Shown in pieces: positions 1-58,886 of a stretch of DNA of 64,000 nt; the stretch's first letter is position 1; every line of letters begins with the position of its first letter. The DNA comes from Lytechinus pictus. Lineage: Eukaryota. The notes beneath the pieces were generated by a model. That model was not told the DNA's origin, searched no databases, and saw nothing but the letters and a program-made list of their open reading frames with translations. Both the position numbers and the translations under genes were made by a program. The stretch lies in assembly GCF_037042905.1 (NCBI RefSeq), contig NC_087245.1, forward strand, positions 7,318,001 through 7,382,000, in the 5' to 3' direction.

Positions 1-358
1 CGTACCATGCTAATTTGCTTGTATTTATATTAATATGCTAGCTATCCAAAATACTGTTTCATCTCCATTCACCTTCACAAGTACTAATTCCCATTTGGTC
101 TTTTACTTGGGCAGACTGATTAGAACCAGTTTGGATTTCCAGTCATGAACCCAATCATTAACAAGTTAAATAGTTTTTATGAATAGAAGATATCACAGTA
201 AAGCATCTTAGGACTGGTTTTTCAGCATTTCTATGTGAAGTAAATAATTTACAATTCAGAGTCATTGAGAATTGGGGTATTCAGATAAGTGACTTGATTC
301 AGTCTAAACCAAATAAAAAATAACAATGACACCTCTAACCCTCTTTGTTCTTCCTTAG

Positions 359-601
359 ATGAGGAACTACCAAGCATTTCATTCTGTCCAAGCAACATCT
401 CCAAGTCAGCGGACCCTGGGTCAATGACAAGCACTGTGACGTGGACTTTGCCAGACTTCACTGACAATGTAGGTGTTGTCTTTGTTAAGGATTCACATCA
501 GCCTCCAGATATCTTTTCTATTGGAATGACAAATGTGACCTATACTGCATCTGATGCTGAAGGAAATATGATTGTCTGTGAATTTCAGGTTACAGTTCTA
601 G
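359..601 (+). CDS. HYR exon 1
   Basis: ttag|AT..G|gtgag; DEELPSISFCP...TDNVGVV...CEFQVTVL; 243 nt. Confidence 0.92.
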
Positions 602-3600
602 GTGAGTTGCGCTTTATATGGTTAACTAATGTCTGGTATTTATGGGAAATTTGGAAGTGGATACAATTCCTTACAACATGAACCACAATAAACATGAAGA
701 CATTTTATCTTTCTAAAATATTTTATCTTGTCACCTTGTTGTGTGTTGTATATAGTCTCAGTGATGTTGCATTGACCTCTTGATATAACCATTTTCTGTG
801 GTCACAGAGTTAAAGCAGTTTCTACTTCACTTGAAAGATCTGGGTGGAGAGTGGCAAATATCTTTAAAACTTTTATACCAGGTTTTTTTTTTAATGTATA
901 TTAAATCTGGGCTAAATACTTTGAATATATTGATTCTAAGCACTTTGAAATCCATGTTCTCAAATTACAAATGGCCATTGTGTTTGGATTTTATACACAG
1001 CTATCTTGTCTTTCCTCCGACGAATGTTAAGAAAATGGGAAACTGAACCCATATTTAATTCTTTTTAATCAATATTTCTATCATTTCCTATGACAATCAT
1101 GATAGTAATAGTATGATCCAGAATTTTCATGAATGATTGACGTTGCATATCAATGCTGTATTAATTTATCAACTTTATATTTATGGATACTTGAATTTCT
1201 TTCCATCCAGATACTGAGCTTCCTGTCTTCCTGAACTGTCCATCAAACATGAGTGCCACAACAGATCCTGGGTCAGCATTAGCTACTTTGAGTTGGCCTA
1301 CAGTACTGGCTACTGACAACGATGGTACCCCAGTTATTGATACTGGTCTGACTGGATTTACATTCCCTGTAGGGGTTGAGGCTGTGACTTACAATGCCAC
1401 AGATGCTTCAGGAAATGTAGCAGAATGTACTTTTTATATCACAGTCACAGGTAAGTCATCACTCTCTACATGCCTGTTTCAACAAGGACATATGATGAAT
1501 AGTTACTTTTTCATTATGTTAAAGGCCATGTTAACAGGAATCAGCAGCCCATATGACTATGCGAAATCATTGTTTTTGTTCTATTAGTTCACTACCCTGC
1601 TCAAAACAATGAATAAATATGCATTTATTCATTGTTCAGTCATATACATGTAAGGTCAAAATCATTTTCCTGGGAAGCGTTTCATCAACATTTTTCCGAC
1701 AAGTTGTCAGATCTGACATCTTTTCTTGATTTTGATTGGCTGAGAAGCATAGTTACTATGGTAACTGTCAGGTAAAATGAGACTTGGCGGATGAAGTCTT
1801 TTCATGAAACACCCTCCTGATTTTTTACGACTTTAGATATTCATCACTTTGAATGTTTTCAATTGTGTATGAGTTCTGGACATAATTTTTTATGTAGTTT
1901 TAAGCTTGGATTTGTAAATTCTTGATACATGTACATGTAATTCTCTGCCAGTTATGGCCCATCTTTCAATTAATTTAAGTTTTGAAATATAATTTTTTTG
2001 TTGGTAGTGGAATAAAATTGTAGTTGCTTCATATGTATTTATGCAGGACATGTTTTGTTTTTAAAAGTACCAATGCGATCTAGAGTTACTATGACATTGT
2101 TCTCATTTGCAGATAATGAGGCTCCCAGTTACACAAACTGTTCTTCTGACTTCAGTGTAGCCGCAGACAAAGGTTCAATCAATACCACTGTTAACTGGCA
2201 GGTTCCTACAGCTATGGACAATGTCAATACAATGGCCCTAGTCCTATCTTCTAACTATCAACCACCGGTTGTGCTTGACATCGGATCATATCTCATCAAC
2301 TATACAGCTGTAGATATTGCTGGACTTGTTGGAGAATGTCTTTTTACAATCACAGTAACAGGTAGGTTTCTGTCACCACATATCACCTAGGGACCTATTT
2401 CATGAAACAATAGTTGGTGAATACCATTATTTTGTTACAAGCTGCTAGAATGCTTGCATCTGATTGGTTCAGAGCAAATTTGTCAGTGGAAATCAATAAG
2501 AAGAGGCATCTTGAAATACTCCCCTGTTCTTCATGCATCCATATAGTGCAGGCCTGTCAACTGTCCTTGATAACCATGCACCCTTCATTTTGTTTTAAAA
2601 GCAATGTACAGCAAATCAAGGAATTTAGTCAATCCTAATTCTAACCGGTTTTGAAAAAAAAACTCCTGATGTTTAGCATTAACAAGTATTCTGACGTGTA
2701 TCAAGCTGTGTTTTAAGCATATTTCAGGTCATAACCTGTCTCTAGACTTTGTTCTTCTTAAATGTTCCCCCCCCCCACAAATGGCCGTCTGTTCTCTGCT
2801 CATGTGAACAAATTCCTGCCATCTAGCATTCAAGTTCATTGAAGAGCAGTAAAAGAGTGTTCGGATAGCTTCACTCTCTTTTATGGACCTGTGTTAAATA
2901 CAAATATATTAATGATCATATAACCAGTCAGATATAGCAATCAAGTTCCTCAAAGTAATCAATTGAAAAGGCAGAAAAAAACTTTGGTCGTCTATAGTTA
3001 GTGGTATTCTTTAGCTTGAAATGTCTTGAAGAATGTTTGTTTGTTTACTACAGATGGTGAAGTCCCAACCATCACTTGCCCAGCTGACATTGTGAATGTA
3101 ACAGATCCGGGTCTAGCTGTAGCCTCAATCTCCTGGTCTGATGCTGTAGCAACTGACAACACTGGATCTCTCGCAGTCTCTTCAGACATTGCCAGTGGTT
3201 CTAACTTCACTATTGGTGAAACAACAGTTACCTACAGTACTACTGATCCTTCAGGAAACCCTGCTATGTGCTCTTTTACTGTCACAATCTCAGGTATGTT
3301 GCTTGGTATTGGTTCATTAGAATACCTACAAAACGCATATTTAATAAAAGTATAAAGTTATAGGGAAAGAATGCATATGCAATTATCAAATAGCTTTGTA
3401 AGTATCCTTCTCCGTATCCACTTCTATTGTGTTATTAAGCATCGTTTACAACTCTTGATAGCCACCGATTTACTGATAACACATATGTTGCCCAAGCATA
3501 TATATTTATGAAGGTATGTTTATACAGGACACTATCACATAATTTTTCTTTGTCGTTTTAAAAGTTCTTGTGTCCAATCATTGAATGCTAGATATTGCTA

Positions 3601-6600
3601 ATCTGAGTGCAGACATCTTAACCTAACATGATGGTTTAAACTTATTGAGTAATTGCAATATTGCGTTTTTCCCGATGCAGATGAAGAGAACCCAACGCTG
3701 TTGAACTGCCCCTCGGCTATCACCTATAACATCACCAACTCCAGCTCACAGGCTGTTGTCACTTGGCCAGCTCCAACAATTGCAGACAATTCAGAAAGGG
3801 TCTTCACGGTGATCTCCACTCATTCAGGCTCCCTCTTTAACTTTGGTGACACAACCGTTGTTTATCGTGTGCAAGATCTTGCTGGAAACATGGCCTCCTG
3901 TTCATTTGTTGTGTCTGTTAATGGTGAGTTTCTAACCACCAATGGCTTGGAATTCAGTCAAACCCTTGCAGGTTCGACAATCTAATTTTGAAATAATCAG
4001 CTTGTTTACAATGCTTACATTTCCAAAATATAAGATTCAACCAACAATTTTGAAGACTTCATTCATAAGAAACTTTTGCTGCCCATTAATTAGGGAGGAC
4101 CTTGTAAGAATCATCTACAAGGTTTTGGTTGTTAGTTATCCTGTATTTCACCCATTGACTATCAAATTCTGCAATTTAGATAAGGTTTGTTAAGGGACTA
4201 TCCAGTGCGAGTTAGCAGTGGGTTAACCATATGCTATGATATGTTTTGAATCCCTTTTCACCTACATATCTTATCTCCTACAGATCAAACCCCACCAGTC
4301 ATTGAGGGTTGTCCATCTAGTATCAACACAACTACAGATCCAGGATCTCCTACAGCAATGGTGACGTTCCAATCTCCTAACATCACTGACAATCAAGGCA
4401 CACCTAATATCATGTTGAACAAACAGTCTGGCTCAGAATTCCCAGTGGGAGACACAGTTGTTACCTACACTGCTACGGATGGTTTTGGCAATGAGGCTTC
4501 ATGTAGCTTTACTGTATCAGTGTCTGGTAAGCCCCTGATTAGAATAATGTTTTCATTTCCAACAGTGTCACACAACATAATCTAAATTGTGCATATACAT
4601 CTATCTATCCTTACCAAAAAATAAAATTATGCATGCACAAAGATCTTTATAAGACCAGGGTCCTATAACACAAAGCTAAGCGATGAAAAGCAAATATGAA
4701 AGAACGCTTTTGATTGGTTCCTGGCCAGTATTTCAAACCAAATGTGCGTGTAAGATTGATATTGATTGGTCGGTCCATGTAGCAATGATCGCTGATCTTT
4801 GTGTAAAAGAGCCCAGTTCATCGTAATCAAATCATCCTGTCCCAAAATATTCACAAATATTTTGGATATGTTATACTTTTTAACAATTCCAGAATGAAAG
4901 ATAAGCAGTTCTATATTAGATATATTTATTGTTGTGTTGTTATAATTCACATTCATTTCAATTTCTAAAAATATGTTGACAATGCTAATGAGAAGGCCCA
5001 TCTGGTTGTTGTGATGACTTGTATAGATATCTTCTCTTGATGCTTTCAGCCTTGCAAGTGAAAGCTTACCAAACATAAAATTTTCATGATTGTGAAAGAT
5101 TTTGTATTATGTAAACGATGCCATTTGTACAAGAAATTCTGGGTGAATACTTTCAGAAATAGTATTTTTATGTCTGAAATATATCTTGTTTTTCCACACT
5201 CCAGATGAGGAACCACCTGTCTATGTGGGTTGTCCTTTCAATGTGACTGTCCCCACCGATAATGGAACAGCCAGTGCTGTTGTGAACTGGACAGAGCCTG
5301 CCGTGTCTGATAACACGGTAGCAGTCACATCAACCCCTGCTATACCTATAGGAAGTACCTTCAATCTTGGCAGTACAACATTCACCTACACAGCTCAAGA
5401 TGCCTATGGCAATACTGCTCTTTGTCATGTTAATGTCATTGTTTATGGTAGGTTGACATGATAAACCAAGAAGACAATTCCATAAAATAATCAACGCCTT
5501 AGTGTGTACAACCTCCATTTTGCTCCATTTTTTCTTCATTTCATGCAGTATTAAAAAAGTGATGATTTGAGGGCATTGAAATTGTGATAAGAACCACACA
5601 TAGGGGATCAGACATGTTATGTAATTGCCCTGACGGGTGTTTCATAAAGCTGTTTGTAATTTATGAATGTCTGGTAATCCTATCTTGTGCTACATACATG
5701 TAATAGATCCCTGAATAACTTAGAACGTGTACCATCAGTGAACACGTCCCACTGGGAACTGAAGACCAACATGGGATGAGCGAGTCTTACATAAATCAAC
5801 TTTATGAAACACCCTCCTGGAGATATCCATTCATGTCACTTGTTATTGGTAATGCTCCATTAGAATGATTGTTTTCTTTTTCAGGCACTGAAAGCTCATT
5901 AACTTATGATTTCATAACAAATCATATGAAACATGGCCCTTTGTTCTAGTCTCCAGTGACAAATGTTCCTTGAATGCATAAGACAGTGTTGGAAGTACAG
6001 ATGAAAATAAGTCTATTGCAACTTTCTATGACAAGTTGCATGATATATGTTCTGATCCATGAATCATTCTCTTGTTGAGAATTTTCCTCTTTCTTTCTCA
6101 TTTCAGCTTTTAATTCAAATTTAATTCCTGTCTCTCTGAAAGAACAAGCTCAAAGGCAAAATTAAAGATCATTTGCCTCTTATGTCTTTTCCTTCTTGTG
6201 CCATATTTGATCTCATAGAAAAAATCTTGAGCCTGAATGGAGATAATGTCAGATATTCACAAATTTAATATAAGAAGGCTTGTTCTTTTAAATCTTCACT
6301 CCTTGAGATGGAGTTATAATTTCTAGACTTTGAAGGAGTATGTTTCCAACAGGAAGTGACTTTTATGAGCAGTAGAAATTGTTACTTTATTGCCACCCAA
6401 CGTTTCTTTTTGATTAACCTACAGTAATTGTTGTTGACCTACAGATGATGAGCCACCAGTTCTACAGGGTTGTGATTTTGGTGATATCATCCAGGAGGCA
6501 GATGCAGCAACAGATCAAGCAGTAGTTGTCTGGACACCTCCAGTGGGTGTGGATAATTCAGGTGCCCCTACAGTCTCAGAGAACTACGCTCCAGGATCAT

Positions 6601-9600
6601 CCTTCCCTGTGGGTGTCACTACTGTCACCTATACTGCTACCGATGTGGCTGGACTCAATACCACATGCTCTTTCAACATCTCGGTGCTTGGTAAATCCAT
6701 CAAGTTTCTTAATGAAATGTAGAACCATTTAAAGCGTCCTGTATACCTAAGTTATCAGTATTGTCAAATTATTTTGTCAAATACCCCTTCTTTATATAGA
6801 ATATAGGGGAAAATAAGGATACAATAACAGCGTTATAGTAAACATTCCTATGATATGATCTCTTGCAGTAGTGTTTTACCCATATCTTAAGTGAGATATT
6901 TGGTGTCTTGGTTCCCATAGAATTCTGTCTATAGTTTACAATGTCATTGTCTCCTATTGGATTTCTTATTATGCAGATTCAGAGTCCCCAACATACACCA
7001 CATGCCCAAGCAATGTGGTTGGCTACACAGGAAACGACACCACTGGTGAGGTGAGTTGGTCAGTCCCCACAGTGACTGACAATGTTGCAGTGGTCTTTGA
7101 GAATCAGACACACTATCCAAATGACAGCTTCCCACTCGGAATCACTACTGTGGTGTACTCTGCTTTTGATGCGACTGGAAACTTTGGAGAATGCAGCTTC
7201 AATGTTACATTATCTGGTAAGTGAATGCTGAGGGTTCTGTGCTGGAGACTGATGTAAATAGTCAAATTGATATGTAAAATGAATCTTGTTCTATGGACAG
7301 TCGGAGGAGAGAATATTGCTCATCTGATCCTGGGTGCTTCTCACTTCATCAGCCTGTGTGTATTACTGAATGAGTTGAATTTTAAAAAGGTTCTCATGAT
7401 TACATTCCTTGTGTAATCATGATAAGGTACATGTTTATCAATTTATAGTGTCCATTTACAGTTTTCGGTTAAAGACTAAAATTAATTTGTATACGTTTGT
7501 CTTGAGAGAAAATATTGATACTCTTGTCTCAATATCGGAATATTATTTCTTCTCCTCTTTGTTCACTTCTTCCCTTCTTCCTTTTCCTCTTCTTCCTTTT
7601 CCTCTTCTCCCTTTCTCTCTTCCTCCTCCTCATCCTCCTCATCCTTGTCCTCCTCCTCCTCCTCCTTCCAAACACAATAATGTTTCACATTGAAATGACT
7701 ACCATGCTTAAATATCATTGATTATCTTTGCAGATATTACTCCCCCTGTCATCAGAGGATGTCCTTCAAACTTTGATGTCAATGCACCATCAAACGATAG
7801 TGGTTTAGTCGTGACCTGGGATCCCATATCTGCAACAGATGCCTTTGGCATTGATTCACAAAATTCATCCCATTCGAGTGGCTCAGTCTTTGTCATTGGA
7901 CCTGGAGTCACTGTGACTTATATCTTTTATGATCCTAATGGAAACTTTGCAAGATGCTCATTTGTTGTGACTGTACTAGGTAAGGTCCATAATGAAATCA
8001 TCACAAAATATTGTAACAAGGTACTTGTATATACCACATTTTTTGTATATACACTTTTATATATACACAAATATTCTTTGATCATCCTTGAATGTATAAA
8101 GTAGATATTATGTAATATTTTTTACTTTACTATTTGAAAAATGATTTTATTTATAAATGTATATTCTAAATTGTATAAGAGACTATCTCCATGCAATGTA
8201 GATAGTTCATTAGGCCTGATATCTAATCGGTTTTTTTTTTCTGATATTGTCAGATGTTGACAGACCAGTTGCAAGTGGATGTCCAGCAAACATCACTGTG
8301 GAACCTGACCTTGGATCTCTCAATGCAACTGTGAACTGGACAGAACCAGTTTTCAGTGATAACAGTGGCAACTTTACACTGAGCAATATGATACCACCAC
8401 TCTCTGTGTTTGAACCTGGCACTAGTATAGTCCTCTATCAGGCTACAGATTCCTCTGGCAATGTTGGCTCTTGTGCTTTTTACATCACAGTCCAAGGTAT
8501 TCCCCTCTTTGAAATTTTCTCATAAATTGAAATAATTCAGTGGTGATAGAGAATGTTTGGTTGGTTAGGCTTCATGCTCTTTCATGTCTTACTTCATCTG
8601 TTTACCATAGTTTACCACTCTCTCTCTCTCTCTCCTTTTCTCTTTCTTGTCTCTTGTATTTTATTTTTCTTCTCAGTATTCTATCTCTCAGGAAGATCAA
8701 AAGAATTCATTACATACCTTCCCATGTTACCTAATCTTAAGCATGAAATAGAAGACTACATATTTCTGTAGTGTCACTCTGATTTTGTCTCGCCTGCATA
8801 ACAGAGCAAGACTTTGCCCCCCCCCCCAGTCTTATTAGGGTTAAATGTCATAACCCTGAAAGTATATGGATCTTGTTCATGAAACTTGGACAAAAGAGTA
8901 ATCAAGCATAAGTGAACATCCTGCATGAGTTTCAGGTCACATGATTAAGGTCAATGAACTTTGGCCGTGTTGGGGGTTACTTGTTGAATTGCCATCATAT
9001 CTTTGAAAGTTAATGGATTTAGTTCATGAAATGTGAACTTAAGGGTAATCAAGTATCACTGATCGTCTTGCACAAGTCTTCGGTCACACGATCTAGGTCA
9101 AATGTCATTAAGGGTCAATGAACATAGTATTTAATCATCATATGAATGGTGTTTTTTGTAAATGATTATTCTGTATTTGTTTTCAAAGTCAGCACTGCTG
9201 CTATATTGAATCGCGTAATGCAGGCGAGGCGAGACTGCCAGAGGTGCTCCACTTGTTATGTATACATTTGTAGTGTGTTACATTTTCTTCATCGCTCATT
9301 CTCAGTATCTGTCTCTTTCTTTCTCAGACACTATCCCTCCAAAACTGACTGGATGCCCAAGCAACATCAATGTAACGACCGACCCAGGCAGTTCCACAAC
9401 CAACGTATCATGGTCAGAACCAGTGGCAAGTGATAACAGTATTGAGCCCACAGTCACTGTGACCATACCATCTGGTAGTTTGTTCACCATCACAGAAACC
9501 TTGGTTACTTACACTGCTACAGATGCAGCCAGCCTTGTTGCAGAGTGTTCATTCACAGTTACCGTCAGAGGTAATGAAAATGAAAGTCTTCCTACAAATA

Positions 9601-12600
9601 TGAATAATAATGATGCAGTATATATATTTATTTTCTGAATTTATGATTGCTGTAATGTTTGATGATTATCATTTTAATGGCTGTAGATACGTAATGATGT
9701 GATCGGGGGAGGTATTGTGGGGTTGGCTTGAAGTGACCAAGTCACATGTATGACCATTGTATTTTGCCGATTCTAAATATCTTCATTTTATTTTTACCAT
9801 TAATTTTCTGACCTGGATGGAGTTGGGGAGGAAGACCTGTGGGTTATGGTTATTAAGTTAGCCTTTTCCATACCCAGGTAGCCTCTCCAACTCTCATCCA
9901 GGTCTTATTTTCTCTATCATGTAAAATTGTGATTGATCTTCTCTCTGATTTGTTTGTATTCTCTATGTTTTTGATATGCCAAATAAAATAATAATAATAA
10001 CAATCATATACTACATGTACATTGCTGCGCTAAAGACAATGTTTCTAAACGCAGCATACTATAACCGTGACTTTAGCGTTTCTAGTCAACCAATGATTAA
10101 AATTCATTTTCCCAATTGATTGTGGACCTGGCAGCCAGTGAGCAGCCCCTTAGCTGGGCAAAATATCATGGTCAAATGGGATTTTTGTTGAGACTTAGGT
10201 CTACCATATGAAGGCAGTGCTCCAGAAGCTTGATGATCACAAACCCTGTGGTTACATCATATAAAGAATTATCCATGAAAATGAATACTTATGAGCTTTT
10301 TTTTTAAAGAAAATGCTGATATAATCTCACTTATGCTTAATATGAGTACTCACGGTGAGGCAATGGTTCGTGCATCGCTGACACCACTTTCAGGTGGATC
10401 AATAAAGCTTAAGTAATACATATTGGACGTCTTATATGATTAATAACCAAAGGAAACATTACAATTAGAAATTGAAAGCAGGTAATGATATATAGGGGAA
10501 TGATTTTTAGGGTTACATAACTTTCCAAACTAAGCTTTCAAAATCTAAAAACATGTATTTGAAGGATATGGATATTTTGTATGCCTTTTCTTCCAGATGA
10601 AGAGTTACCTGTCTTCACCGAGTGTCCAAGCAGCATCAACCTGACCTTACCTTTCAATGACAGTAGCCTTAATGCAACATGGTCAGATCCTACCGCAACA
10701 GACAACAGCTGGATAGTCACCGTTACCTCTAGTCTACCTCAAGGCTCAGTACTAGCTCTTGGCTCCTCATCTGTCACGTACACAGCGGTTGATCTATCTG
10801 GGAATCAAGCTCAGTGCATCGTTACCCTATTAGTCCTTGGTAAGTTTCAGACCATACTCTTTTTCAGTAAAGATACTGGAGTTATTGTCTTGGATATTAT
10901 GGATCATGGTACGAAGAATTTTGTACCATTTTGTGCTATTTCCATCACCTATAGTATAGTACTACATGGTCAGGATTGTCACATAATTGCCATTGCACAA
11001 CGTCTACTTAGCTTGTTGTACGCAATCAAATGGGAGGCTCAACGTCAATCATTAATACCATTGCATGCGTAATGTCCATAATTTACCATTGCATGGTCAA
11101 GAACAAGGTGACGTCACTATAAAAATTAGGATTCAATTCATTGCGGTTTAAATGCAGGTGCAATACACGTAGGGCTTACTGGCTGAATGCGCATTGTGAC
11201 TGCACGTTTGAGGGATTTTGCATTTCGCTTTCAATAATTATTTTTTTTTTTTTTATAGATGAACATAGGGACAAATTAATTATTGTTCATATTTTCGCTA
11301 ATTTCTTAGGCGTCGTTAAAGTAGCCACCCGAAGAAAATTCATGATAAGTGATAATTATAGACAAGTTTTATATGGATCGAAATGTCTTGTCTTGCTATT
11401 CACAATATGTGACTAAAAAGTCTTATAGCTGTCATGGAAAAGCGAGAAATGCAATTATAAGATACCCTTCTCAGCTCCCTGAATACAGACATTACTGATC
11501 GGACACAGTCTCAATGGTGATGTCACACAATTGGCAACTGAAGTACTCCACACGTATGCATGCATGCATTTCCCTTGCTGTTTTGTTTTTCCTTCATATT
11601 TTTACTGTTTTTTCCATGTAATTAAATATTTGATTCCTGCTTTCGACATCCTCATACACTATAGTGAACAGTAGTTGTGTTATTTCACCCATTGTGCCGT
11701 GGCGTGGCGTCTGTCGTCCGTCCACAATTTCAAAATGCTTCTTCTTCTCCATTTCAAGTCCGATTTCAATTCTGTTTGCTTTATATGATAGCACTAGGTG
11801 GGGGATTCAAAACTTCTACACAGAATTTTGAAACTCATTAAATATGCTTATTTATGCACATTTTTCAAAATTCACAAAAAATGCTTCTTTATTTATTGAC
11901 CGATTCTGAATTTTTTGCTTCCATCTGGTAGAGCTTTATGAGGTTCACCAAACTTCTACATAGAATTTTGAAATTTTGACTAGAACAATTTTTATGCTAA
12001 TTTATGCAAAATTAATTTATGCATATTTTTAAACATTCACATAAAATGCTTCTTCTTTATTTGTTGACCGATTTTGATTTTTTTTCTTCCATCTGGTAGA
12101 GCCTCATGAGGTTCACCAAAATTTTACAAAGAATTTTCAAATATGGAGTAGAAAATTATTCATGCTAATTTATGCAAAATTCATAAATCACAGAAAATGC
12201 CTCTTCTTTATTTGTTGACTGAATTTCAAAATGCTACTTCTTCATCATTTCAAGTCTGATTTCAATTCTGTTCCCTTTATATGATAGCATTAGGTGGGGG
12301 ATTCAAAACTTTTACACAGAATTTTGAAACTCAAAAAATATGCTAATTTATGCGTATTTTTCAGAATTCAGATAAAATGCTTCTTCTTCTTTAATTGTCG
12401 ACCGATTTTGATTTTTTTCTTCCATCTGGTAGAACTTCATGAGGTTCACCAAACTTCTGCATAGAATTTTGAAATTTTCAGTAGAAAATTATTTATACAA
12501 TTTATGCAAAATGTATTCATAAATCACAGAAAATTCCACTTCTTTATTTTTGTTCCATCTGAGAGCTACATGAGGTTCACCAAGGTTCTACACAGAGTTT

Positions 12601-15600
12601 AGAAATTTTGACTAGAAAATTACTTATGCTTAATTTATATGAAATTCATAGATCACAAAAAATGCTTCTATGTCATTTCTTCCTCAATTTCAATTCTATA
12701 TCCTCAATTTATGTCACCAATGTAATTCACTACAGTGTCAACTGGGCTGAAATTAAAATTGTGTTAAATTTCGTTGCGAGATGCCGGATGAGCTCCACAT
12801 CATTGATGTGCTAGTTATTGAATTATAAACTGCAAAGAGATAAGTTAAGCAATCCATGGCTTTTAATTGGTATTCAAGTTCGAGCTGCTACCTCATTAAG
12901 ATCAAATTTTTCCCACCTTGTAGATGAAACTGTCCCTGAGATCACCTGTCCTTCAGATATCATGGTCAACACTGATGCTGGTAGGGCTACAGCCACAGTT
13001 ACATGGGATGCAGCCAATGCCACTGATAACAGTGGTGTAGTGAGCGTCATGACTGATGTAGCAAGTGGAACCAACTTTGCAGTTGGAGACACAGAAGTAA
13101 CTGCCACAGCCACAGATGGATCTGGGAACGTTGCAACCTGTACCTTTACTGTCACAGTGTCAGGTGAGGTTTATATTCTTATATTACGCATCCTCATGAT
13201 GATCTAACTCCATCACTGCTTACTGACTACAACCTACATCTTTGTCTTTGCTTTCATGAATTAATTCTTGAGACAACTCTTTCCTTCCTCACAACAATTT
13301 ATTTCACCTAGGTTAAGACTAATATCGTTACATTTACATTTCTGCGTTAGAAATGATATATTCATATTAAATGCTCTAGTCAATGTTCTATTGTAATCTG
13401 ATTATATAAAGCCGTTTCAAGTCGCAGATATTCCTGTAGCTTGCAGCACATCAAGGTTGCAGCGTAACTCTCAATATACTTTTTTTCTGTTTCCACAGAC
13501 ATGGAAGCACCTGTCTTTATCATCTGCCCCAGCGACCAGACCTTATCCCTCCCAAACACCGGAGCCGCTACCCGTGTGGTTAGTTGGACCACCCCAATTG
13601 CTTCTGATAACACCATAGTTTATCAGCTTTCAGTTAATGCTTCTTCTGGATCTCCGTTCAGTGTGGGCACCACATTGGTACGGTACATAGCCGTTGATCT
13701 CTACAACAATACTGAATATTGTGATTTCAGTATTACTATCAATGGTGAGGATCACATATTTATTGCTCTATGATAGAATTGAATCTTTCAAATTTAAAAC
13801 AAGTTTGGTCAGTGTAATGTAATTTATTTCTCTGTGTAATGAATGGTAAAGCCTGATAACAAAGTGGTTTTCTTTCCGATTTATATAAATTGTAGAATGT
13901 TTAGATTCTATTGTAAATACTCAAACATTCTTTAAATTCAAAACTCTTCAACAGATGCAATCCCACCCACCTTTTCCAACTGCAACACTACCACCCTCAC
14001 ACAGTCTACCGATGTGAACTCGCCCATTGCCATGGTGATCTGGTCTGAACCCACTGCTTCTGATAACTCTGGTGTATTCACTGTTACCTCCACATATTCA
14101 CCTGGTGATTCTTTTCCTGTTGGTGACAATGTTGTGGAATACCTGGTTGTTGATTCCTCAGGGAACAATGCAACTTGTTCCTTCCTTGTCGTTGTTGAAG
14201 GTAGGTTTCAGGTTCTGACTGCAATATACCCTCAAATTTTCAATGATATTTTACCCTTGTAAGTAGTAACAGAGGCCCTTTAAAATGCTATTAAATTCAA
14301 AGGATGTCATTTAGATTAAAAATACGTAGGAAATATAGCCCAAATGTTGGCCTACAGATGATAAATTCTTCCTGGCAGATTCATGTGTCTAAATGTTTTT
14401 CCCGTAAGTCTATTGTGAATGTCCCATCTTATGATTTGTGCATTGCAAGTTGAATTTGCTGAGCAGTGCAAACAAAGACCAAAGTGTTGAGCAACTATCC
14501 CTTGTACAGATAATGCGAGATCAAACATGCTACATGTACACAATTATTGAAATTCAGTGGTGCCATAAAAGTCGCCATTAGAGATGAGCAAATCTGACAT
14601 AGTAATGTTATTAATGTAACAATTGCATCTGCCAAAGTGACTGAGGTGGAGCAATAATTCATTTAATTTTAGCTGAGTACAGTATTTATGTTTTTATAGG
14701 AGTATCAGAAACTTTTTTTTTTATATTAATAGTCTCAAATGCTCATCTTATCCTGGTTGTCTTTGTAAAACTTTGTTAGACTATCATAGATTGACTAAGA
14801 CCCTCTGATTTTACAGACACGGAAGCACCTCAATTCCCTGGTTGTCCCGTGATGCTCCTGACTGCCCAAGATGCTGGAGAGGTTTTTGCTACAGTCACCT
14901 GGCAGCTGGTAGCTACTGACAATGTCCAAGTGGTCAATGAGACATCCAGTCATACCAATGGTACTCAGTTTGATCTGGGTAGCACTGAGGTGTCCCTTGT
15001 AGCTCTTGATGCTGCCGGTAACCTTGGAGTCTGTAACTTTACTGTCATTGTACAAGGTTTGTATCCTTCAATTACAAGCTTATGATACATTTAGAGTAGG
15101 AGGGTTTGGTTTAATGGAAATGATGATGCATATAGCCAGGATAAGGAGAAGGAATAGGTAAGGACTATTTGGAGGAGCATAAGGTAAATCCGGCTGCCCA
15201 TTTAAATGCAAAGTAAACCATTGATTTCAAACCAAATTTCCCAAGTCTGAATACTTGGAAGTTTCATGAGTGGTGTTATAGTGATCAGACAGATAGAATT
15301 GAACAGGTGGAATTATTAGCAAGGGTTCGATTGTGATATTCATGTACATCATGGTTTATCCTGTCATCTCACAACATTGCTAACTTCATAAGACCTCCCG
15401 TCTTGGTATGAATTCTTTTGCTTGGAGGTGGTTTTATGACAGGGAAAGGGGATGGGGTCTATGTTTGTATAACTGCATTGACATCGCAGAATGTATTCAT
15501 ATAAATCATCATGTCTATGAAGTTACTTCTTGAAATATGCATAGCTAATTTGCTCATCAGACCCACCATCACCAGACTTTTGTCCGTCAATTCTACCTGC

Positions 15601-18600
15601 AGATCAAAGTGCTCCTGTCATCATGAACTGTCCTGGAACAACAACGTCAACTGCCTTTGTGAATGCAAACTACAGTGTTGGATTCTGGGTAGCGCCTACT
15701 GCATCTGATCCTGGTGGAGATGTGACACGAACCAGTGACTACCAGCCACTTGATAGATTTTTCATTGGTGACACTCCAGTGACCTATGTCTTCACTGATA
15801 GTGCTGGCAATCAGGCTAACTGTACATTCATTGTAGAAATTACTGGTAAGATACTTTGATTATGAACATTGATAATTGTAATATTGTGTTTCTGAATCAT
15901 GCTTGATGTATTACATGTATGTTACTACATACATGAACATTTTACAGCGACTTTTATCACTCATAGCAAATATGTTTCCCCGGTAATTCTTTAGTCATTT
16001 TGATTGTTTTTTTTTAAGACATATGCAAGAATACTATTTCTCAGGTGTATCATCTACAGTTTAAATTTACTTTTGGTTAATCTTCATGTGTAGCATTTGC
16101 CATGCACAGAGAGGGAACAAAATAATGCCAAAAAATATGTGTCTAACATTATTTATAAGATCAAGTGTCTGGGGCAAAACTATGTGCGAAATGTTAAAAT
16201 TAATTGTAAACATCAGTCATGTCTTTTGAATATGTTACACTTTCTGATGGTGAAAATATCTCTGGATAGTTGTGATGATCCAAGTTTACCCAAATTTTCC
16301 TTTACAGATACCCAAGATCCTGTCATAACTGGCTGCCCATCCGATATCACAGTGGGTCCAGACCAAGGATTAGTGACCGCAGTGGTCAATTGGACAGAGC
16401 CTATCATCACAGACAACTCTTATTCTGTGACAGTCACTCAAAATGAATTCCCCAACACCGTGTTCAGCGGAGGTTCGGTGACTGTCACCTACATGGCTAC
16501 TGATCCCAGTGGAAACCCTTCCACTTGTTCCTTTACAGTCACAGTCACAGGTAACAACAAAATGACAAAAAGATCAAAAAGAGTTTGTTTTTCATGAAAT
16601 CTTGGCACCCAAAGACCCATGTCTTGAATGAAGATTTTAATGTTTTGACAAGCTACATGTAATATGTCTTAAATCAGTTATGGCAGAGGTGCAAATTATT
16701 GTCATATTTGGTACTCAAAATGTTGGGAATTGTCTGGGAGTGACAAGTAATGGCAGTTTTATTGACCAAAATATCGGCTGTCTAACATAATAAACATAAA
16801 TTTCATGCACTTTGGGCTCCCCATGAAACACACAAATGTTAACAATGATATTAGATCTTCAGGATAAAGGTTGAAATGTTCTTTATCCCTATGCAGATTC
16901 TGAACCACCAATGCTCAGTCAATGCCCAGGAAACATAACCCGTGCAACAGATATTGGTAATGCTACAGCCTTGATCTCTTGGGTAGAACCCACTGCCACT
17001 GACAATAGCATACCACCCAATGTTACATCAACGGCATATCCTCCTTCATACTTCAATATCGGAGAGACCACTGTGACATACACTGCTACAGATGCCTTCC
17101 AGCTTACAGATACTTGTTCCTTTATAGTGACTGTTATAGGTGAGAATTATCTTTTGAATAAATTCCATATCAACAGATCCTAATCATTTGATTAAAAATG
17201 TAGTTGGGAGTTTGTTTCGAGTTGAGATAAATCCGATTCAATAAGGGAGTGTTGTAATACGTCCAGAATTTCTGAGGGCGCACAGAAAGAGGCTGAGGTT
17301 TTGAAATCCAGTCATGTTGTCCTTTGTGTTACTTACATGTATATTGGGTATGCATCTTCTTTCTTCATTACCCTCTGAAGTGAAACTAATAAAGAGTTTC
17401 TAATGATTATGAGAGAGGTTGTTAGTTTTGCATTGCGCCAATCTAAATTCTGTCAAGGCAAATTGTAGAAACCTAGCAATCTGCGCAAGAATCATTAACT
17501 ACATGTATCTAATTCTTTGTATTGATTCCAGATGAGGAGTCTCCTGTAATATCCAGCTGCTCACCAGACGTGTCGTTTGTAGTTGACACAGATTCTGACC
17601 GGGTAAACGTGACCTGGGCCCTTCCCACCGTTTCTGACAACAGTGGGGTTGTTGGTCTGATGGCTAACATTGATCCAGGCACTGTATTGATGGTTGGAGA
17701 GTATGCTGTGACTTACACTGCAACAGACTCATCAGGAAACACAGATAATTGCACCTTTAGTCTCAGTGTGCTTGGTAAGCTATCTTATCTTGTATTCAAT
17801 GATAACAATAAAGTACCTATATATTCATTTTTGATGTAGCATAATATCACATTCATTGTCTATGTAGATACTTCAGTCAGCTACGGCACTGATTCGTGAC
17901 CTATGTCACTCAATGTTTATTTCTTGTGGTACTCATTTACACGTACATGTAAGAATCAAAGTCCTGCCAAAAATTATTGACTTAAGTAATTACAGGCGTG
18001 AATACAAGAATAATGATGATATTGATGGCAATAGAAATAAAGACAATGATAAAACGTGCTCTGAATAATGTCGAACCATAATCCATTTTAAGTTTTGTTC
18101 AAGTGTATAATAATCAGATCTCATATAGGAAAAACTCATGTAGCAAGGGTGTAATTGAAAATTTGAAGTGGCTTATTATTTCCATTGTATTTTATGGTTG
18201 TATATGGAACATATTTGGTTTAAAAGTGGCATTCTTACTTTGCATCCTTTCATTCATATTCTATACCTCTTCTTTTTTCTAGATGAAACCCCACCAACTT
18301 TCTCTGATTGTGACCGCACAATCACTGTTAACACAGACCCAGCCACTCCTACTAGTTTAGTTACTTGGAATGTATCTGCAACTGATAATAATGGGGTTCC
18401 TACAGTGCAATCAACAATGGTCTCTGGATCGTTGTTTAGTATCGGCAATACCACTGTTGACTTCACTGCTACAGACTCATCGAATAATACCAATACCTGC
18501 TCACTACTTATTCAGGTTATAGGTGAGGGTCTTTGAAAGCCTTGAAGAAAGGTTATTGTTATCCCTTGACATACCAGACATATTGCAGTTCCATGGGATT

Positions 18601-21600
18601 TGTGTGTGTTGTGTGTAGTGCAAATTCTGTCGACAATTTGATTTGCGTATTTTTTGTGTATCACAGAAAAATCTAGGCTTTTAATGCCCTGTTCTTGAGT
18701 GGATGGATACTGTTGAAATTCCTAAGAACTGTAGGATTATTCATATCTTGTGATTCACAAATATTTTGTTGATATTTTCAAAGTGCATGAATCGCCATTC
18801 CGAAGAATTTTGAAAGTTATACTTATATACAGACTTTGAGGGAATTGTAACAATGTATAGGGCAAAGATACATATTGTTATGTGTTTCATACAATAGTGA
18901 TATTGAATTAGATTGGCATATCTCATTCATGTTTAGAAAATAATGCATATATTCCTGTGTTCTTATCATTAATAGATAATGAAAATCCAAGATTTGAAAA
19001 CTGTTCATCAAACATCACAGTTAACACTGATCCCAACTCCAGTGTTGCAATGGTGACATGGCAAGAACCTACAGCTATTGACCACTCAGGTTCAGTAAGC
19101 CAGCAATCTGATATTGCTAATGGAGCATCATTCTCCATTGGACCTACAACTGTTACCTATACTGCTGTTGATGCAAGTGGAAACACTGCACTATGTTCCT
19201 TCATTGTGACAGTCATCGGTGAGTAGTGTAAAAAGTTGTGGGATTAAGCATGTATTTTTGACAATTTTTCATGGCTAGTCAACCATTTTATCAATGGTGT
19301 CACTCCAGTTCTCCGCAGCTTTCAACTAGTATTCAATGTAATATTAAGCCCATTCATTAGTTCTCGTATATGCTGTGATTTTGTTATGAAAAAAATGACT
19401 GGTCTAATTCCAATAAATCAAGGGGGAGGGGTTTTTGTATTTTAGATACATGTATAAAAGATTGTCATGCCAAATGGGATGTAATATCAATCATTTGATG
19501 TAATATATCATTGTACAAATTTTAATTCAGAGATTTTTTCAATTCAAAGCACAAGATGACCTGAATCTATCATTTTGTTTATCCTCTAATGTTTTTAGTT
19601 GCCCAAGATAATGAACACTTCATAGTTATATATTGTCACATTCAAGCCTTGGGTCTACTTTCTACTTTGAGACCTTATTATGTTTGTATTTTGCTGTTTT
19701 TATACAAGGCATTGTGGATGGAAAGGGAATGCATCATCCACCGTTGCATATACAGATACTGTTTCTTTTTCCAACTAAATAATAATTGATACCTTTCACT
19801 CACCTTTCATATCAGATGACCAATCACCTGTGTTCACTTCCTGCAACACCAGTACCATCTATCAGAGCACTGATCTGGGTGAGAACTATGCAACGGTCAG
19901 TTGGACCCTTCCTACTGCTACGGACAATGATGGGACACCTACAATGAGTTCTACATCTGACCCACTAGATCAATTCTCTTTGGGTCAAACACTGGTAGTT
20001 TACACTGCATCAGATAACTCTGGCAATCAAGTCAATTGTTCTTTCACTGTTGAAGTAACTGGTGAGTATCATGGATCGTGATCAATATTGAACAGGAATC
20101 GTAATGTTATTTCTGTAGGATCCTTCGTCCATTTTCTATTTTAGAGTTTTAACCCTAGTGGCAACCTCTTTTTTCCTTTAAAAAATTCTCTTCAGGATTT
20201 AAGGCTGTTTTTAATACAAAATATGAGGATGGTTACCACCCTTTCCTTTATTCTATTATACTGCTTTTTTGTAGTTGTCCTAAATATATGAAATTATATC
20301 ATTAGACCTAAGGTTTTAACAGCCCATCAGCAATATGCTTTACATGGGAATAATCAATTTCTGCAGTGACTTTGTTGTGATTTATATCTTGCTTCCATCT
20401 CATGTTTTCATGCCACTATATTTGTTTCAATCAAACAGACGATGAGCCACCAATGTTTTCAGGCTGCCTGACAGCAGGTGTTACGACCAACCTTGGATCT
20501 TCCCAAAGCTTTACATCAGTTAGCTGGGCAACTCCAACTCTATCAGATAACGTCATGGTTGCCTTCAATTCATCCTCCGCTACCCCGGGATCCATCTTCT
20601 TCTTTGGAACAACCATTGTAACATACTATGCTAATGATACGTCAGGCAATGAAATGCGTTGCTTGATTCCTGTTAATATTTTAGGTAACTATTACTCAGA
20701 TACATTGAGTTCAGTGATTGGAATCACTAGTCTGTATACATCTTGAATGATATTTATATCATAATATCCTAGTACGACATCCAAAGTCCTTTGGAAGAAC
20801 ATAAATGTGTTGGACAATTATATGATATGCGCTGTACAAGAATTCAATATTATTATTATAATTACTTTGTATTATAATCATTGTTTTGTTGCTCTTTTTA
20901 TTATTGTTGTTATTTTTAAACATTGGTATGAACAGCCATTGCAGACAACAAAATTGATATTCACTAGAAGTCATTAAGAAATCATGAAACCAATTGAAAT
21001 TATATTAGTATGTTTTACAAGATATGATAGTAAATTTCCAATTGATACATGTACCTGTAGGTCAGCTGAACTTTTGAGACTTTGATCTTAATTGTTTTTT
21101 TTCTTGGAAATCTTCAACCCAATAAGTTCACCATGAAACATTGATATTAGCCTGTTGATTAAATTCACATTTATATTTGCTTCTTCATTGCTATTTTCAT
21201 TTGATTGCCATTTAGATGTGACTGCGCCCAGTCTTGTCACTTGTCCATCAACGGTTACATACAACTCTTCTACCTACACACCTGGTCAAGGGCCTCTCTT
21301 TGTCACACCTAATGCTACTGATGCAGTCGGGATTCAGTCTGTCACATCCAATCTAGGCCCCTATGATAACTTCACCCTGGGTGCTACTACAGTTACTTAT
21401 GTCTTCAAAGATCTTGCTAACCTTACCACTTCCTGTGAATTTGATGTTATAGTTGAAGGTGAGTGGCATTTCATCATCTATTTCAGCCATATGCATCTTC
21501 ACATAGAATATCACAGAATCTATATACAATGTTTAAGAATTGTATTCAAAGTCATGAATTGCTATTTATACTTTTATGTGTCATACCTTGAGAGGGGTCA

Positions 21601-24600: not shown

Positions 24601-27600
24601 TCTGGTCACATTGAACTACATTGTATAGGAAGAATTGAACTACATCACATGTACATTTAAACAGTCAGATCATTATTTTTAACAGCCACACCCAACTATT
24701 AAAAAATGAACTTTTTTCATCTTTTTCTTTTATGAAAACGTCATCAGAATTTAAACCTTTAAAAATTAATGACAGTTTTATTAGTAATAATACTAGTAAT
24801 TAATAAAAGATACTTTCATGTTATTTCAATCTTCTATCAATCATTACATTTTTATTTGTTCTTCCTGTAAAGATCTAATTAATTTTTCAGCAATCATTAT
24901 CAACCAGTAGCAAGTATAATTTTAGTTCTAACCTATCAATTACCTCTCTTCTTCCTTTGGGGGGTCAGTTCCTTTATAATGAACAAACTCTCTGATGGAA
25001 GTCAACATGTACTTTCTTTATTAAAATATAGAAAGTGGTCTAGTTATTTGGTGCACACATAGCGCACTTTCCATCTTGATTAGATGCTCAAGGCGCTTCA
25101 GAGCAGAACAACAACAAAAGCTACAGTCAAACATGTATTAGTGGCCACCATTCTTAACAGGTATGTTTTCAGGTTGCCCTAGAAGGTGGTCACTGAAGTA
25201 TTGGTTTTCAAACATCTACCTTATTCAAGAATCAACAAAATGGCTTCATTTTCAGATTTTTAGATTTATTGCAGTAATTGCCAGCTTATGATGGCAGAGT
25301 ATTGACATGTATTCTTTCTCATACTTTTATCACTCAAGACAATGTGAATCCAGTCTTAACTTGCAAATCCGCAATCACCATTGCTACTGACCCCGGTCAA
25401 GCTACTGCTTCCAATATCAGCTCATATAACATGGCTACAGACAATTCAGGGACACCAGTATTGACCTCTAACTTACCCATGGATGAAGCTGGTCTAGGAG
25501 TGACCCCAGTGACCATTACAGCTACAGATGGGTCTTGGAACACAGCTATGTGTCAATTCAACATCACTGTAGTAGGTCAGTATTCAATCAAAATCAACAT
25601 GTTGTGATAACTTGTTAATGGAGGAAAAAAAAAATACACACACACACATATATATTATCATCACATGCATGTGGAAAGGGGCAATATAAATCCGCAGTAT
25701 ACTTGATACAGTGTAAATAGAAGGAACCTAGTCATTGTGAATATTGAAGGAATAGATCTAATTGAAATTTGAAAGGTGAGCCATTATGCCAGCTAATACA
25801 ATGAAATTATATATTTTTCTTATCCAGATAATGAAGGACCGACCTTTACACCATGTCCAGAAGACATGCATCTGAACACAACTAACGTTGCAAGCTGGAC
25901 CATCCCTGTAGCTTCAGATAACACAGGAATCATTGCAAGCTCTGTATTCTCCCATGAACCCGGTGTCTTCCCTGTAGGACCCACCGTTGTCAGTTACAAT
26001 GCCACTGATCAGTTTGGCAACTTTGGCACATGCCAATTCACTGTCACTGTTGATGGTACGTAGTCATCCATCTTTCAAGTCTGGTTTAGTCCACAATTGC
26101 AGGGGTGGGGACACCTTTATCTCATACCCAAAGAATTTGCTGTTCTTATACTTTGCCCTATTCCATGCTGCCTCCTTCAATCCAACCCTCCTACTTTCTT
26201 CCATTTGATTCCATGTCTTTTTCAGTCATTCCCTTTACCCTCTGACCATTCATCTGAAATTCAACCACCTTCCTCCTCAGAACATAATGAACATCATTCC
26301 TCAACACATGTCCGTATGTACTCCATTGAGTCCATTCGCCATTCCCATGTAATCCAACACTTCTTCATTAGGTTCAAAGTCTCCTTCCAGTCAGTTCTGG
26401 CAGAAACAAATTTATTTTGCTTTAACACACAAAAAATGGTAGGGTGGGAATTATCATGAATACATCGATGATCTTAGATGAGTGAGGACTTAGGTACCCT
26501 ACAATCTGTAAAGGGCTTATCACAAAATACAGTGGTATCACATTTTTTGCTCAATTAAAAAAGCAATTATATGATATTTATATTTCCCGAAGTAGTCTCA
26601 TATTGCCAGAGTCTTGACCGGTGCATGTCCATAAATTCATGTGAAAGAAGAATGTTTTATGTTTACCTTAACTCACCTACAGCCTCTGGTAGCCCTGTGG
26701 TATCTGGATGCCCAGCGGACATATCTGTTAACTCATCAGTAGGTACCTTCAGTGCTAATGTGACCTGGGTAGAACCTACTGCTACCGATAGTGATGCGGT
26801 CAACACCACTCAGTCACATTATCCTGGTCAATTGTTCCCTATCGGAGTGACCGAAGTGACCTACATCTTCACAGATACCACTGGCAGGTCTACATCATGT
26901 ATCTTTGATATCACAGTCATATGTGAGTATCTAATAATTACTTTTCTTGCCAGAAGTAAAATGGGTGTGTCAGATTAGTATCTACAAACTTCACATCAAA
27001 TTAACCATCATTTATCATTCATGAAACAGAAACAGATGCATTAAAAATTCAGTTAATATGGCACATAATGATGATATTTAATATTGTTGGTATTAGGGTG
27101 TCATTATTGTGATGATTGTAATAATGGTAATTAAGATGATGATAAAGATTATAGTAATGATATTTATGTTAAGAGCAAATACTTAATTAACAATCACATT
27201 ATTACTTTATTTGTACGTCCAATGTATGTTGTATCTGTATATTAACATGTAGATGGTAATATGTTGTGGTTCCAAATAGGAAAGAGATGCTGTATTGAAT
27301 GCATTTCTTACTAAACAAGGCTTTGTGATATTTCATTTTAGTATTACTAAGTAATCATGATTGCTTTGTATTTAATTCTTCCAGTACAAGGGGACACTGT
27401 GCCACCTGTCTTTGACTTCTGTCCAAGTAACTTCATTGCATACACTGAAGTAGGCAAGGGCTTTACCACTGTCTCTTGGCCTGAACCCATTGCATCTGAT
27501 GCCTCTGGACTACCAGTGACCCTCTCCTCTGACACTGTTAATGGAGATATCTTCCAGGTTTACAACTACACCGTTATCTATACCGCCAAAGATAGCGTCA

Positions 27601-55247: not shown

Positions 55248-55561
55248 GTAAGTTTCTGATGAAAAGAATTAGCTAGGTGGAAAAGAAATCATAACATTTA
55301 ATCTGATCAGATTAAATGATATGCCATCCTGTCATAAGAATTCAAGTTTGGCATTACTTTAAATAATATCATACATCATCTCACAACCATTACATCACTG
55401 TAATAGCTAGTACATTGTTTGAGTAAACCCTAGGTAGTGTTTTTGTAGTCCTTATTTGGAAAGATGGAAGGTGTAGTATCTATGTCATTGTATTTGATTT
55501 GCTCATTTGCTCACATTTGATCATTTACTGTTTTCCTTCTGATTTTGTTCTCTCTTTTCAG

Positions 55562-58546: not shown

Positions 58547-58602
<56 letters not shown>

Positions 58603-58886
58603 ATGATGATGATTATGATGATGATTGTGATGATGATAGTGACAATGATATCCAGAAAAATAGAAACAGCCTTAGAAAAAGGACACTGAAGATTGAAAGT
58701 AGTAGTGAAGACAATGACAGTGATGCACTAAATTCCCCTGGTAGAAGGTTGCGATCACAGCTCAAAAGGAATGCTAATGAAGACGAGAGTATCGGTAGAA
58801 GGGGGAAAGGTGGTAGTCGAGTAATCCAGAAACCTATTGGTACTCCAGAGAAGAGAAGAACCCAATCACAGGTAGAAACAGTCTAG
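55562..58886 (+). CDS. Gene 2, large exon: acidic/basic low-complexity repeat protein, probably nuclear and disordered (~1165 aa in total)
   Basis: tttcag|A CAC phase-2 acceptor; 3.3-kb open frame; poly-Asp, TPxK/R, IESSSE and LADFIVD motifs; the end is either TAG 58884-58886 or a splice at 58871. Confidence 0.82.
57714..58505 (+). repeat. Intragenic 420-bp (140-aa) tandem duplication in gene 2
   Basis: tatgaaattatccataagtccagaac at 57714 and 58134; YEIIHKSRTTPSRRG...RSQLKT occurs twice. Confidence 0.92.

Follow-up and report, generated by a model that had tools for sequence, protein, structure and literature searches.

The gene and its HYR domains

The window analyzed here, a 64,000-nucleotide stretch of the genome of the sea urchin Lytechinus pictus (contig NC_087245.1, positions 7,318,001 to 7,382,000, forward strand), contains the 3' part of one intron-rich plus-strand gene that encodes a long array of HYR domains. 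An earlier note, made from the letters alone, had proposed that this array hides a super-repeat of eight domains. Our analysis confirmed that the eight-domain periodicity is real.

The window carries 43 HYR exons (359-34096, plus strand), as the earlier note had counted, each of 228-255 nt and encoding one domain. All 43 have AG/GT borders and are in phase 1-1, and the HYR family (Pfam PF02494) was recovered in 6 of 6 exons tested, at 37-77 bits against a gathering cut-off of 21.7. Downstream of the array the domain order is SEA-EGF-EGF-SEA-EGF, followed by a transmembrane (TM) segment and a tail ending near 45332. The 100 kb upstream of the window hold 56 further HYR exons, of which 54 have GT donors and 2 have GC donors, and the total comes to about 99; no 5' signal-peptide or EGF exons were located in those 100 kb. 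The two GC-donor exons were excluded from the 97-domain matrices. Exon -53, the most distal, lies 14 kb away from the other exons and may not belong to the gene.

Sense-strand reads cover the exons in two stranded RNA runs, and 15 of 15 junctions among those listed (265 more exist) join consecutive exons with GT..AG borders, so that some minor skipping may still occur. A 9,999-nt contig from a third run, which is RNA by guess only, carries exons 9-27 at consecutive positions. As in transmembrane mucin-like SEA/EGF proteins, SEA and EGF domains lie near the membrane and are followed by a TM segment and a cytoplasmic tail. We saw no long Pro/Thr/Ser O-glycosylated region of the kind found in transmembrane mucins; the ectodomain seen consists of folded HYR domains (the extreme 5' end was not located), and the 43 in the window contain 96 N-glycosylation sequons. 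The predicted product is a giant type-I membrane glycoprotein with an HYR array, SEA-EGF-EGF-SEA-EGF, TM segment and tail, an architecture that points to a probable role as a long, glycosylated rod in the cell coat. At an estimated 4 nm or so per domain, the extended rod would measure about 350-400 nm.

Exons are numbered from the first in the window, with zero and negative numbers upstream, and t1 to t8 denote the eight position classes. The HYR exons are arranged as follows:

359-601 and 1211-1450, plus strand: HYR exons 1 and 2, read as t5 and t6, not t1 and t2; the end of an upstream partial block (exons -1, 0, 1, 2 = t3-t6), with exon 2 clear and exon 1 ambiguous
2113..7979, plus strand: 8-domain block, exons 3-10, classes t3, t4, t5, t6, t7, t8, t1, t2; exons 3-6 at 2113-2361, 3054-3293, 3681-3923, 4284-4526; exons 7-10 at 5205-5447, 6445-6690, 6977-7216, 7734-7979
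8254..15845, plus strand: 8-domain block, exons 11-18; exons 11-14 at 8254-8496, 9328-9570, 10597-10839, 12924-13163; exons 15-18 at 13499-13744, 13955-14200, 14817-15056, 15603-15845
16308..21458, plus strand: 8-domain block, exons 19-26; exons 19-22 at 16308-16550, 16897-17139, 17532-17774, 18283-18522; exons 23-26 at 18976-19218, 19816-20061, 20439-20684, 21216-21458
22492-22737, 23587-23829, 24332-24574 and 25339-25575, plus strand: half block, exons 27-30, t3-t6, where the lag-8 zone ends
25828..34096, plus strand: HYR exons 31-43, not in the 8-register; exon 31 (plus strand) encodes a short 76-aa domain, a landmark for comparison with other species

Eight and other periods in the array

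We scored similarity between domains as a residual BLOSUM score from which each domain's overall likeness to the consensus had been removed, with 5000 shuffles as the null. Lag 8 is in clear excess (z=6.67 for exons 1-30 and z=5.06 for all 43; p=0.0002, the lowest value that 5000 shuffles allow), and lag 16 also peaks (z=3.1-3.4), both as the earlier note had expected. Across exons -21 to 43 the best ungapped diagonal is lag 8, aligning exons 1..22 with exons 9..30 (family-wise p=0.0005), and leave-one-out assignment placed 20 of the 28 exons from 3 to 30 in the correct class, where chance is 1 in 8. The effect is small, with 41% identity inside position classes versus 36% between them; in exons 1-30, lag 8 reaches 41% versus 35-39% for other lags up to 15. 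The signal is limited to exons about -8 to 30 of the roughly 99, with a clean zone of three and a half blocks in exons 3-30, and the excess is absent from the pairs 15/23 and 2/10. Introns show no matching similarity (mean local score 23.3 at lag 8 and 23.4 at other lags), again as had been claimed. Same-position domains in successive blocks are more alike than domains at other lags, and the array in this sense is a super-repeat by the sequence definition, but it fails two ruler-type features that we tested, described below.

The motifs quoted in the earlier note are all present in the sequence, but most also occur off register, and single motifs are not diagnostic. DNV.V, given for exons 1/9/17/25, is also found in exon 35, and TDN.G.P, given for exons 6/22/30, recurs in exons 2 and 24. 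The 246-nt length and the Cys not followed by Pro, by which exons 8/16/24 had been recognized, are shared by 8 and 10 of the 43 exons, respectively, and the terminal VL of exons 13/21/29 ends 7 of the 43. The proposed register holds for exons 3-30 but not from exon 1: exon 2 classifies with 6/14/22/30, whereas exon 1 is not classed with 9/17/25, has exon 29 as its best single match, and carries DNAGFV rather than DNV.V in the ortholog of Strongylocentrotus purpuratus. The earlier note also expected position classes to form clades. A maximum-likelihood tree of single domains (81 columns) pairs 11 with 19, 18 with 26 and 6 with 14, groups 10/18/26 with 32, and joins 24 weakly to 30 (90/71), but it does not recover 8/16/24, 12/20/28 or 13/21/29, and 1 of its 40 inner branches is starred. 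A domain tree this weak neither supports nor contradicts the grouping by position.

The array has other periods as well. Exons -12 to 2 carry the same classes as blocks of 4, 7 and 4, in the order t3 t4 t5 t6 / t3 t4 - t6 t7 t8.. / t3 t4. t6, with two positions of the 7-block uncertain. Here 12 of 15 classifier calls agree with the assignment by eye, a comparison that is partly circular, and the blocks appear as a lag-11 diagonal (p 0.0035). Exons 32-43 alternate at lag 2 (family-wise p=0.003), and when exons -18 to 43 are taken whole, lag 2, not 8, gives the strongest peak. The N-terminal part contains recent near-identical copies at lags 3, 4 and 11, and its adjacent domains are 83-94% identical; adjacent domains in the old part of the array share 36%. 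Since periods of 1, 2, 3, 4 and 11 occur outside the lag-8 zone, the gene grew with many unit sizes, of which eight is only one.

Several side observations concern the same exons and their introns. The lag-2 alternation (exons 32-43, 26683-34096) adjoins the SEA domain, and the homolog from the crinoid Antedon also has 52/54 and 53/55 pairs. Upstream, at -67265 to -19261 relative to the window, lie about 32 HYR exons, many of them 83-100% identical. A very similar consensus domain fills a paralog that contains CUB and trypsin domains (S. purpuratus LOC105446087, L. pictus XP_054749016.1), which suggests exchange between the genes. Exon 4 (3054-3293) and the upstream exons at -615..-376 and -8255..-8016, at lags of 4, 11 and 15, share about 93-94% DNA identity. 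The likeness of these three non-adjacent exons extends over the exon and at most about 20 bases of its flanks, and their neighbors are old. Protein identity within the trio is 0.89-0.93 in Lytechinus and 0.78-0.90 in Strongylocentrotus, mostly above the ortholog identity of 0.80-0.85, a pattern that looks like exon-limited gene conversion. Intronic interspersed repeats at about 8850-9230 and 11850-12750 attract many reads from elsewhere in the transcriptome; a 168-bp tandem pair lies at 11850-12181. A fragment resembling the reverse transcriptase of a long interspersed nuclear element, recognized by eye from its translation, lies inside a 9-kb intron at about -41000 to -39900 (window-relative).

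Relatives in urchins and other echinoderms

Exons 23-43 match the L. pictus protein XP_054749141.1, 'hyalin-like', at 96-100% over the intact domains of that model, which is incomplete and garbled: its start lies within exon 23, and a degraded repeat of exons 36-43 follows the tail, whereas the gene in the window is clean. The S. purpuratus ortholog is LOC588928 (XP_030830199.1, XP_030830190.1, XP_011662071.1). It matches the L. pictus array one-to-one over all 62 domains from -18 to 43, at 54-88% identity and with no gain or loss, and has its own lag-8 peak (z 6.1-6.8). Each of the two urchins expanded its N-terminal array separately, and the HYR count is about 99 here, 80-85 in the long S. 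purpuratus models and 27 in the sea cucumber Apostichopus japonicus. The databases name LOC588928 and XP_054749141.1 'uncharacterized' or 'hyalin-like'. Hyalin is a protein of the hyaline layer with long HYR arrays. Hyalin proper, compared through database-named matches such as XP_041472953.1, shares such arrays but is a different gene; 'hyalin isoform X45' of L. variegatus (P0007) gave no domain-for-domain mapping, a mean best identity of 45% and a weak register score (12.2).

The exons that follow the array are these:

34435..35237, plus strand: first SEA domain, two exons (Pfam SEA E=6.6e-5, 23.4 bits, under the 26.4 cut-off for this half-exon; tblastn to the S. purpuratus ortholog)
35570..36121, plus strand: exons for an EGF, with Pfam EGF E=1e-7, and for a calcium-binding-type EGF (tblastn; EGF_CA in the ortholog)
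36620..38098, exon edges approximate, plus strand: second SEA domain (two exons) and first half of the third EGF (tblastn to the ortholog C-terminus; Pfam SEA in the ortholog)
38376..38891, plus strand: exon with the EGF end, hydrophobic TM stretch and start of the cytoplasmic tail (translation; 62% identity to the ortholog)
41818..45332, plus strand: short tail exons (tblastn), with the family motif PYIATGQE at about 43069-43137 and the C-terminal EPGYF at 45291-45332

A homolog search with the TM/tail exon found nothing among proteins of 320-2000 aa, the range searched. Two intronic minisatellites lie amid the tail exons, at 39001-41284 and 43218-44601 (47/63-bp and 50-bp units). Farther downstream, a stop-free plus-strand frame of 1121 codons (55521-58883) has no Pfam match and is probably one large exon of the next gene. 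It encodes very many Asp, Ser, Lys and Arg residues, including stretches of poly-Asp, and 411 bp of it are duplicated internally.

The Apostichopus protein XP_071810838.1 has a matching layout, with 27 HYR domains and an N-terminal signal-like stretch, and peaks at lag 8 in its own right (z 3.1). Within it, domains 2-14 run in the urchin class order (score 26.0, null 99th percentile 14.4, p 0.0005), and 10 of the 17 domains from d2 to d18 best match the expected class (phase-corrected binomial p=6e-5). Identity between urchin and cucumber is 38% for the same class versus 34% otherwise, and 32-45% for putative one-to-one C-terminal pairs. About 2 blocks are present in Apostichopus versus 3.5 plus partial ones in urchins. 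When 363 HYR proteins were scored, many of them isoforms, the top 20 by z were without exception the two urchins' models of this gene or the protein from Apostichopus, and the next-best reached z <=3.7. The conservation of the register in orthologs, which the earlier note had named as a check, was seen, and the old block duplications with retained residues that it had proposed are supported and reach back further than it could know. The eight-class order is thus at least as old as the common ancestor of the urchin and Apostichopus genes. The unit is accordingly older than the urchin/sea-cucumber split, which dates to the Ordovician, more than 450 million years ago.

With blocks concatenated, the tree of urchins and Apostichopus is star-like: the cucumber blocks as a clade are not rejected (p-AU, from the approximately unbiased test, 0.365), nor is cucumber block X with urchin block b (0.138), and cucumber Y with block c is present at 67/74. 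Such a tree may fit block duplications shared by both lineages as well as duplications that arose twice. The C-terminal tree places Apostichopus with asteroid proteins (94/96, not starred), and a clade with S. purpuratus is not rejected (p-AU 0.073); judged by this tree, one-to-one orthology of the Apostichopus gene is neither shown nor rejected.

A PY(I/V)ATGQE-like tail motif and a matching C-terminal layout are found in Apostichopus XP_071810838.1, in the starfish proteins Acanthaster XP_022088734.1 and Asterias XP_071804897.1, and in the crinoid proteins Antedon XP_071961171.1 and Anneissia XP_033099723.1. Among the 12 same-architecture proteins or models examined, the lag-8 peak occurs in Apostichopus only; in Asterias the peaks fall at lags 3/6 (z 3.4-5.1) and in Antedon P0005 at lag 7 (z 5.5), and the others are without a clear period. 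None of nine starfish and crinoid proteins with similar C-termini followed the urchin class register at p <0.02. Crinoids mapped only weakly domain by domain; Antedon, the best of the nine, had a dynamic-programming score of 24.2 (null maximum 22.8) and an in-register p=0.023, as one of 10 proteins tested. S. purpuratus LOC105446087 (P0152) was rejected as a block-sharing paralog, with a score of 41.4 inside the null (maximum 47.5). Domains 12-19 of Asterias P0160/P0378/P0379 form a run that resembles urchin domains -17, -16 and -15 in order (z 3.4-5.1), which hints that this urchin stretch is older than the 8-block. Beyond this family, we examined 71 other arrays of at least 20 consecutive HYR domains, drawn from 149 representatives. 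A significant peak at lags 2-11 is present in 20 of them, none at lag 8, and three of the 20 are old and long, with lags 6, 7 and 11. Periodic similarity is common in long domain arrays and needs no special function.

Origin and meaning of the eight-domain unit

We consider the eight-domain periodicity to be most probably the relic of multi-exon tandem duplication in a one-domain-per-exon array, kept by ordinary constraint on each domain. Because every HYR domain is one symmetric phase-1 exon, unequal crossing-over within introns could duplicate whole domains, in any number, and leave the reading frame intact. Eight domains that had already diverged would have formed an ancestral run, which was copied in tandem several times, around or before the urchin/sea-cucumber split; later partial copies of four domains and one loss would have broken the register, and other regions would have expanded by units of 1, 2, 3, 4 or 11. 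The position-specific residues would survive because each domain of the old part is under ordinary purifying selection and retains the core substitutions, loop shapes and glycosylation sites particular to it. The number of blocks would then set length only, consistent with a spacer that needs no periodic partner. Duplication of several domains at once is the usual mode of repeat growth, with unit sizes that vary within families, according to the excerpted text of Bjorklund et al. (PMC1553488).

Three observations sit less comfortably with this account. Some class signatures last through the copies of both lineages: 6 of 7 class-2 copies have F at column 64, and L stands in place of N at column 70 in exons 12/20/28 and in both cucumber class-4 domains. 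Non-consensus residues shared by a class are kept between the urchins somewhat more often (65.6%) than with shuffled classes (61.7 +/- 1.7%). Finally, the one-to-one match of 62 domains between the urchins indicates that this region is not freely elastic.

A rival explanation, which we regard as possible but doubtful, is that the block is itself a selected structural unit. Each class would have its own junction loops and N-glycan sites, neighbors would be co-adapted, and stiffness, bends and glycans would repeat along the rod; duplications that preserve neighbor pairs would be favored, possibly also because dissimilar neighbors limit misfolding, an argument stated in the excerpted text of PMC12241362. 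The low identity of adjacent domains in the old part fits that argument, whereas the near-identical neighbors of the N-terminal part do not. The most class-specific columns (z >=4: 18, 23, 24, 26, 37, 40, 41, 52 and 64) include the D-N loop and a sequon position that depends on the class: among the Lytechinus and Apostichopus rows, 6 of 9 class-3 copies carry the N at column 24, and 5 of 8 class-5 copies carry it at column 26. The HYR domain model is an Ig-like sandwich with a predicted local distance difference test score (pLDDT) of 94. It matches PKD, cadherin-like and Ig folds at Z 7.1-7.7, values that may mean only a common arrangement; Foldseek returned no match for it at E <=0.001, and no solved HYR structure was close by sequence (best full-sequence E 0.00056, partial). 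On this fold, the conserved N-terminal D/E, the D-N loop and D-x-x-G-N should come together at a single pole of the sandwich, and by analogy with bacterial Ig-like repeats the D-N loop and D-x-x-G-N, facing the preceding domain, may bind calcium. However, the t6-t3, t4-t6 and t6-t1 joins broke neighbor pairs without visible cost, and the periodic zone shows no extra conservation.

A stronger version, which we think improbable, makes the eight-domain unit a functional module that has been preserved from a time before urchins and sea cucumbers split. Its content would be a code of junction types (variant D-N and D-x-x-G-N, possibly calcium-dependent) together with N-glycan positions, giving a periodic shape or ligand spacing of about 30 nm.

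The earlier note had suggested a molecular ruler or periodic binding sites, a reading that our results do not support and that we find very unlikely. An 8-domain block, roughly 30-35 nm by our estimate, would match a periodic extracellular filament or lattice through repeated binding sites, and the period is statistically clear and old, with three and a half blocks unbroken in both urchins. To our knowledge, however, no periodic partner of this protein has been described. A ruler should have an unbroken register and a conserved number of blocks; here the register is broken three times upstream, domain and block numbers vary, and the peaks of relatives lie at lags 3/6 or 7. A ruler would also be expected to place the periodic region under stronger constraint, which was not seen: ortholog identity between Lytechinus and Strongylocentrotus is 72.2% for the periodic exons 3-30 and 72.7% for exons 31-43. 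Same-class identity is just 5 points above background. The class-specific columns are scattered over the core, loops and sequons of many classes, whereas in the titin C-zone, where a block is as long as the 43-nm myosin repeat, conservation is focused on two positions that bear surface clusters (PMC10665226, excerpted text). The 7- and 11-domain super-repeats of the titin A-band and the 7-module super-repeats of nebulin do resemble this array in having peaks at a fixed lag and its multiples, but they have a partner lattice (43 nm), position-specific surface clusters and a ruler function tested by deletion (excerpts of PMC10665226 and PMC1553488). By comparison, our array has register breaks, a variable number of blocks and no known partner.

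Chance or an assembly artefact, for which weakly diagnostic single motifs and a poorly resolved domain tree might speak, deserves next to no weight and is refuted by the independent species. The family-wise p is 0.0005, S. purpuratus repeats the signal, the out-of-sample class order recurs in 10 of 17 Apostichopus domains, and consecutive exons are spliced in RNA.

The closest parallel to a relic of block duplication is the 6-Ig/10-Ig region of the titin/connectin I-band (PMC12241362, excerpted text). Both arrays consist of one Ig-like family with one exon per domain, both grew by multi-domain block duplication, and in both the position classes are recognizable over about 450 million years while block number differs between lineages. 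The classes here, with 41% identity inside them versus 36% between them, are much fainter than those of the titin I-band. The titin I-band is an intracellular muscle spring, whereas this protein is predicted to be an extracellular glycosylated HYR rod with SEA, EGF and TM segments. Tissue-specific block skipping is reported for titin in the same excerpt; none was seen here among the junctions listed.

In the open-access text searched, which leaves out most subscription journals and supplements, we found no paper on LOC588928, on HYR super-repeats or on periodicity of this gene. New here are the domain-for-domain conservation of the array in S. purpuratus and the same eight classes, in order, in the Apostichopus homolog. 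The array offers a datable case in which blocks of several exons were duplicated and the trace can still be read in both sea urchins and sea cucumbers. Moreover, its N-terminal part is still expanding and homogenizing, so that one array allows an old, frozen regime to be compared with a young, fluid one. Should the junction and glycan features of the classes turn out to be functional, super-repeat function would extend from sarcomere proteins to an extracellular HYR rod. Were the eight-domain unit a functional module, it would represent a super-repeat that serves a structural purpose in a non-muscle setting, and each echinoderm class would have its own period (8, 7 or 3/6).

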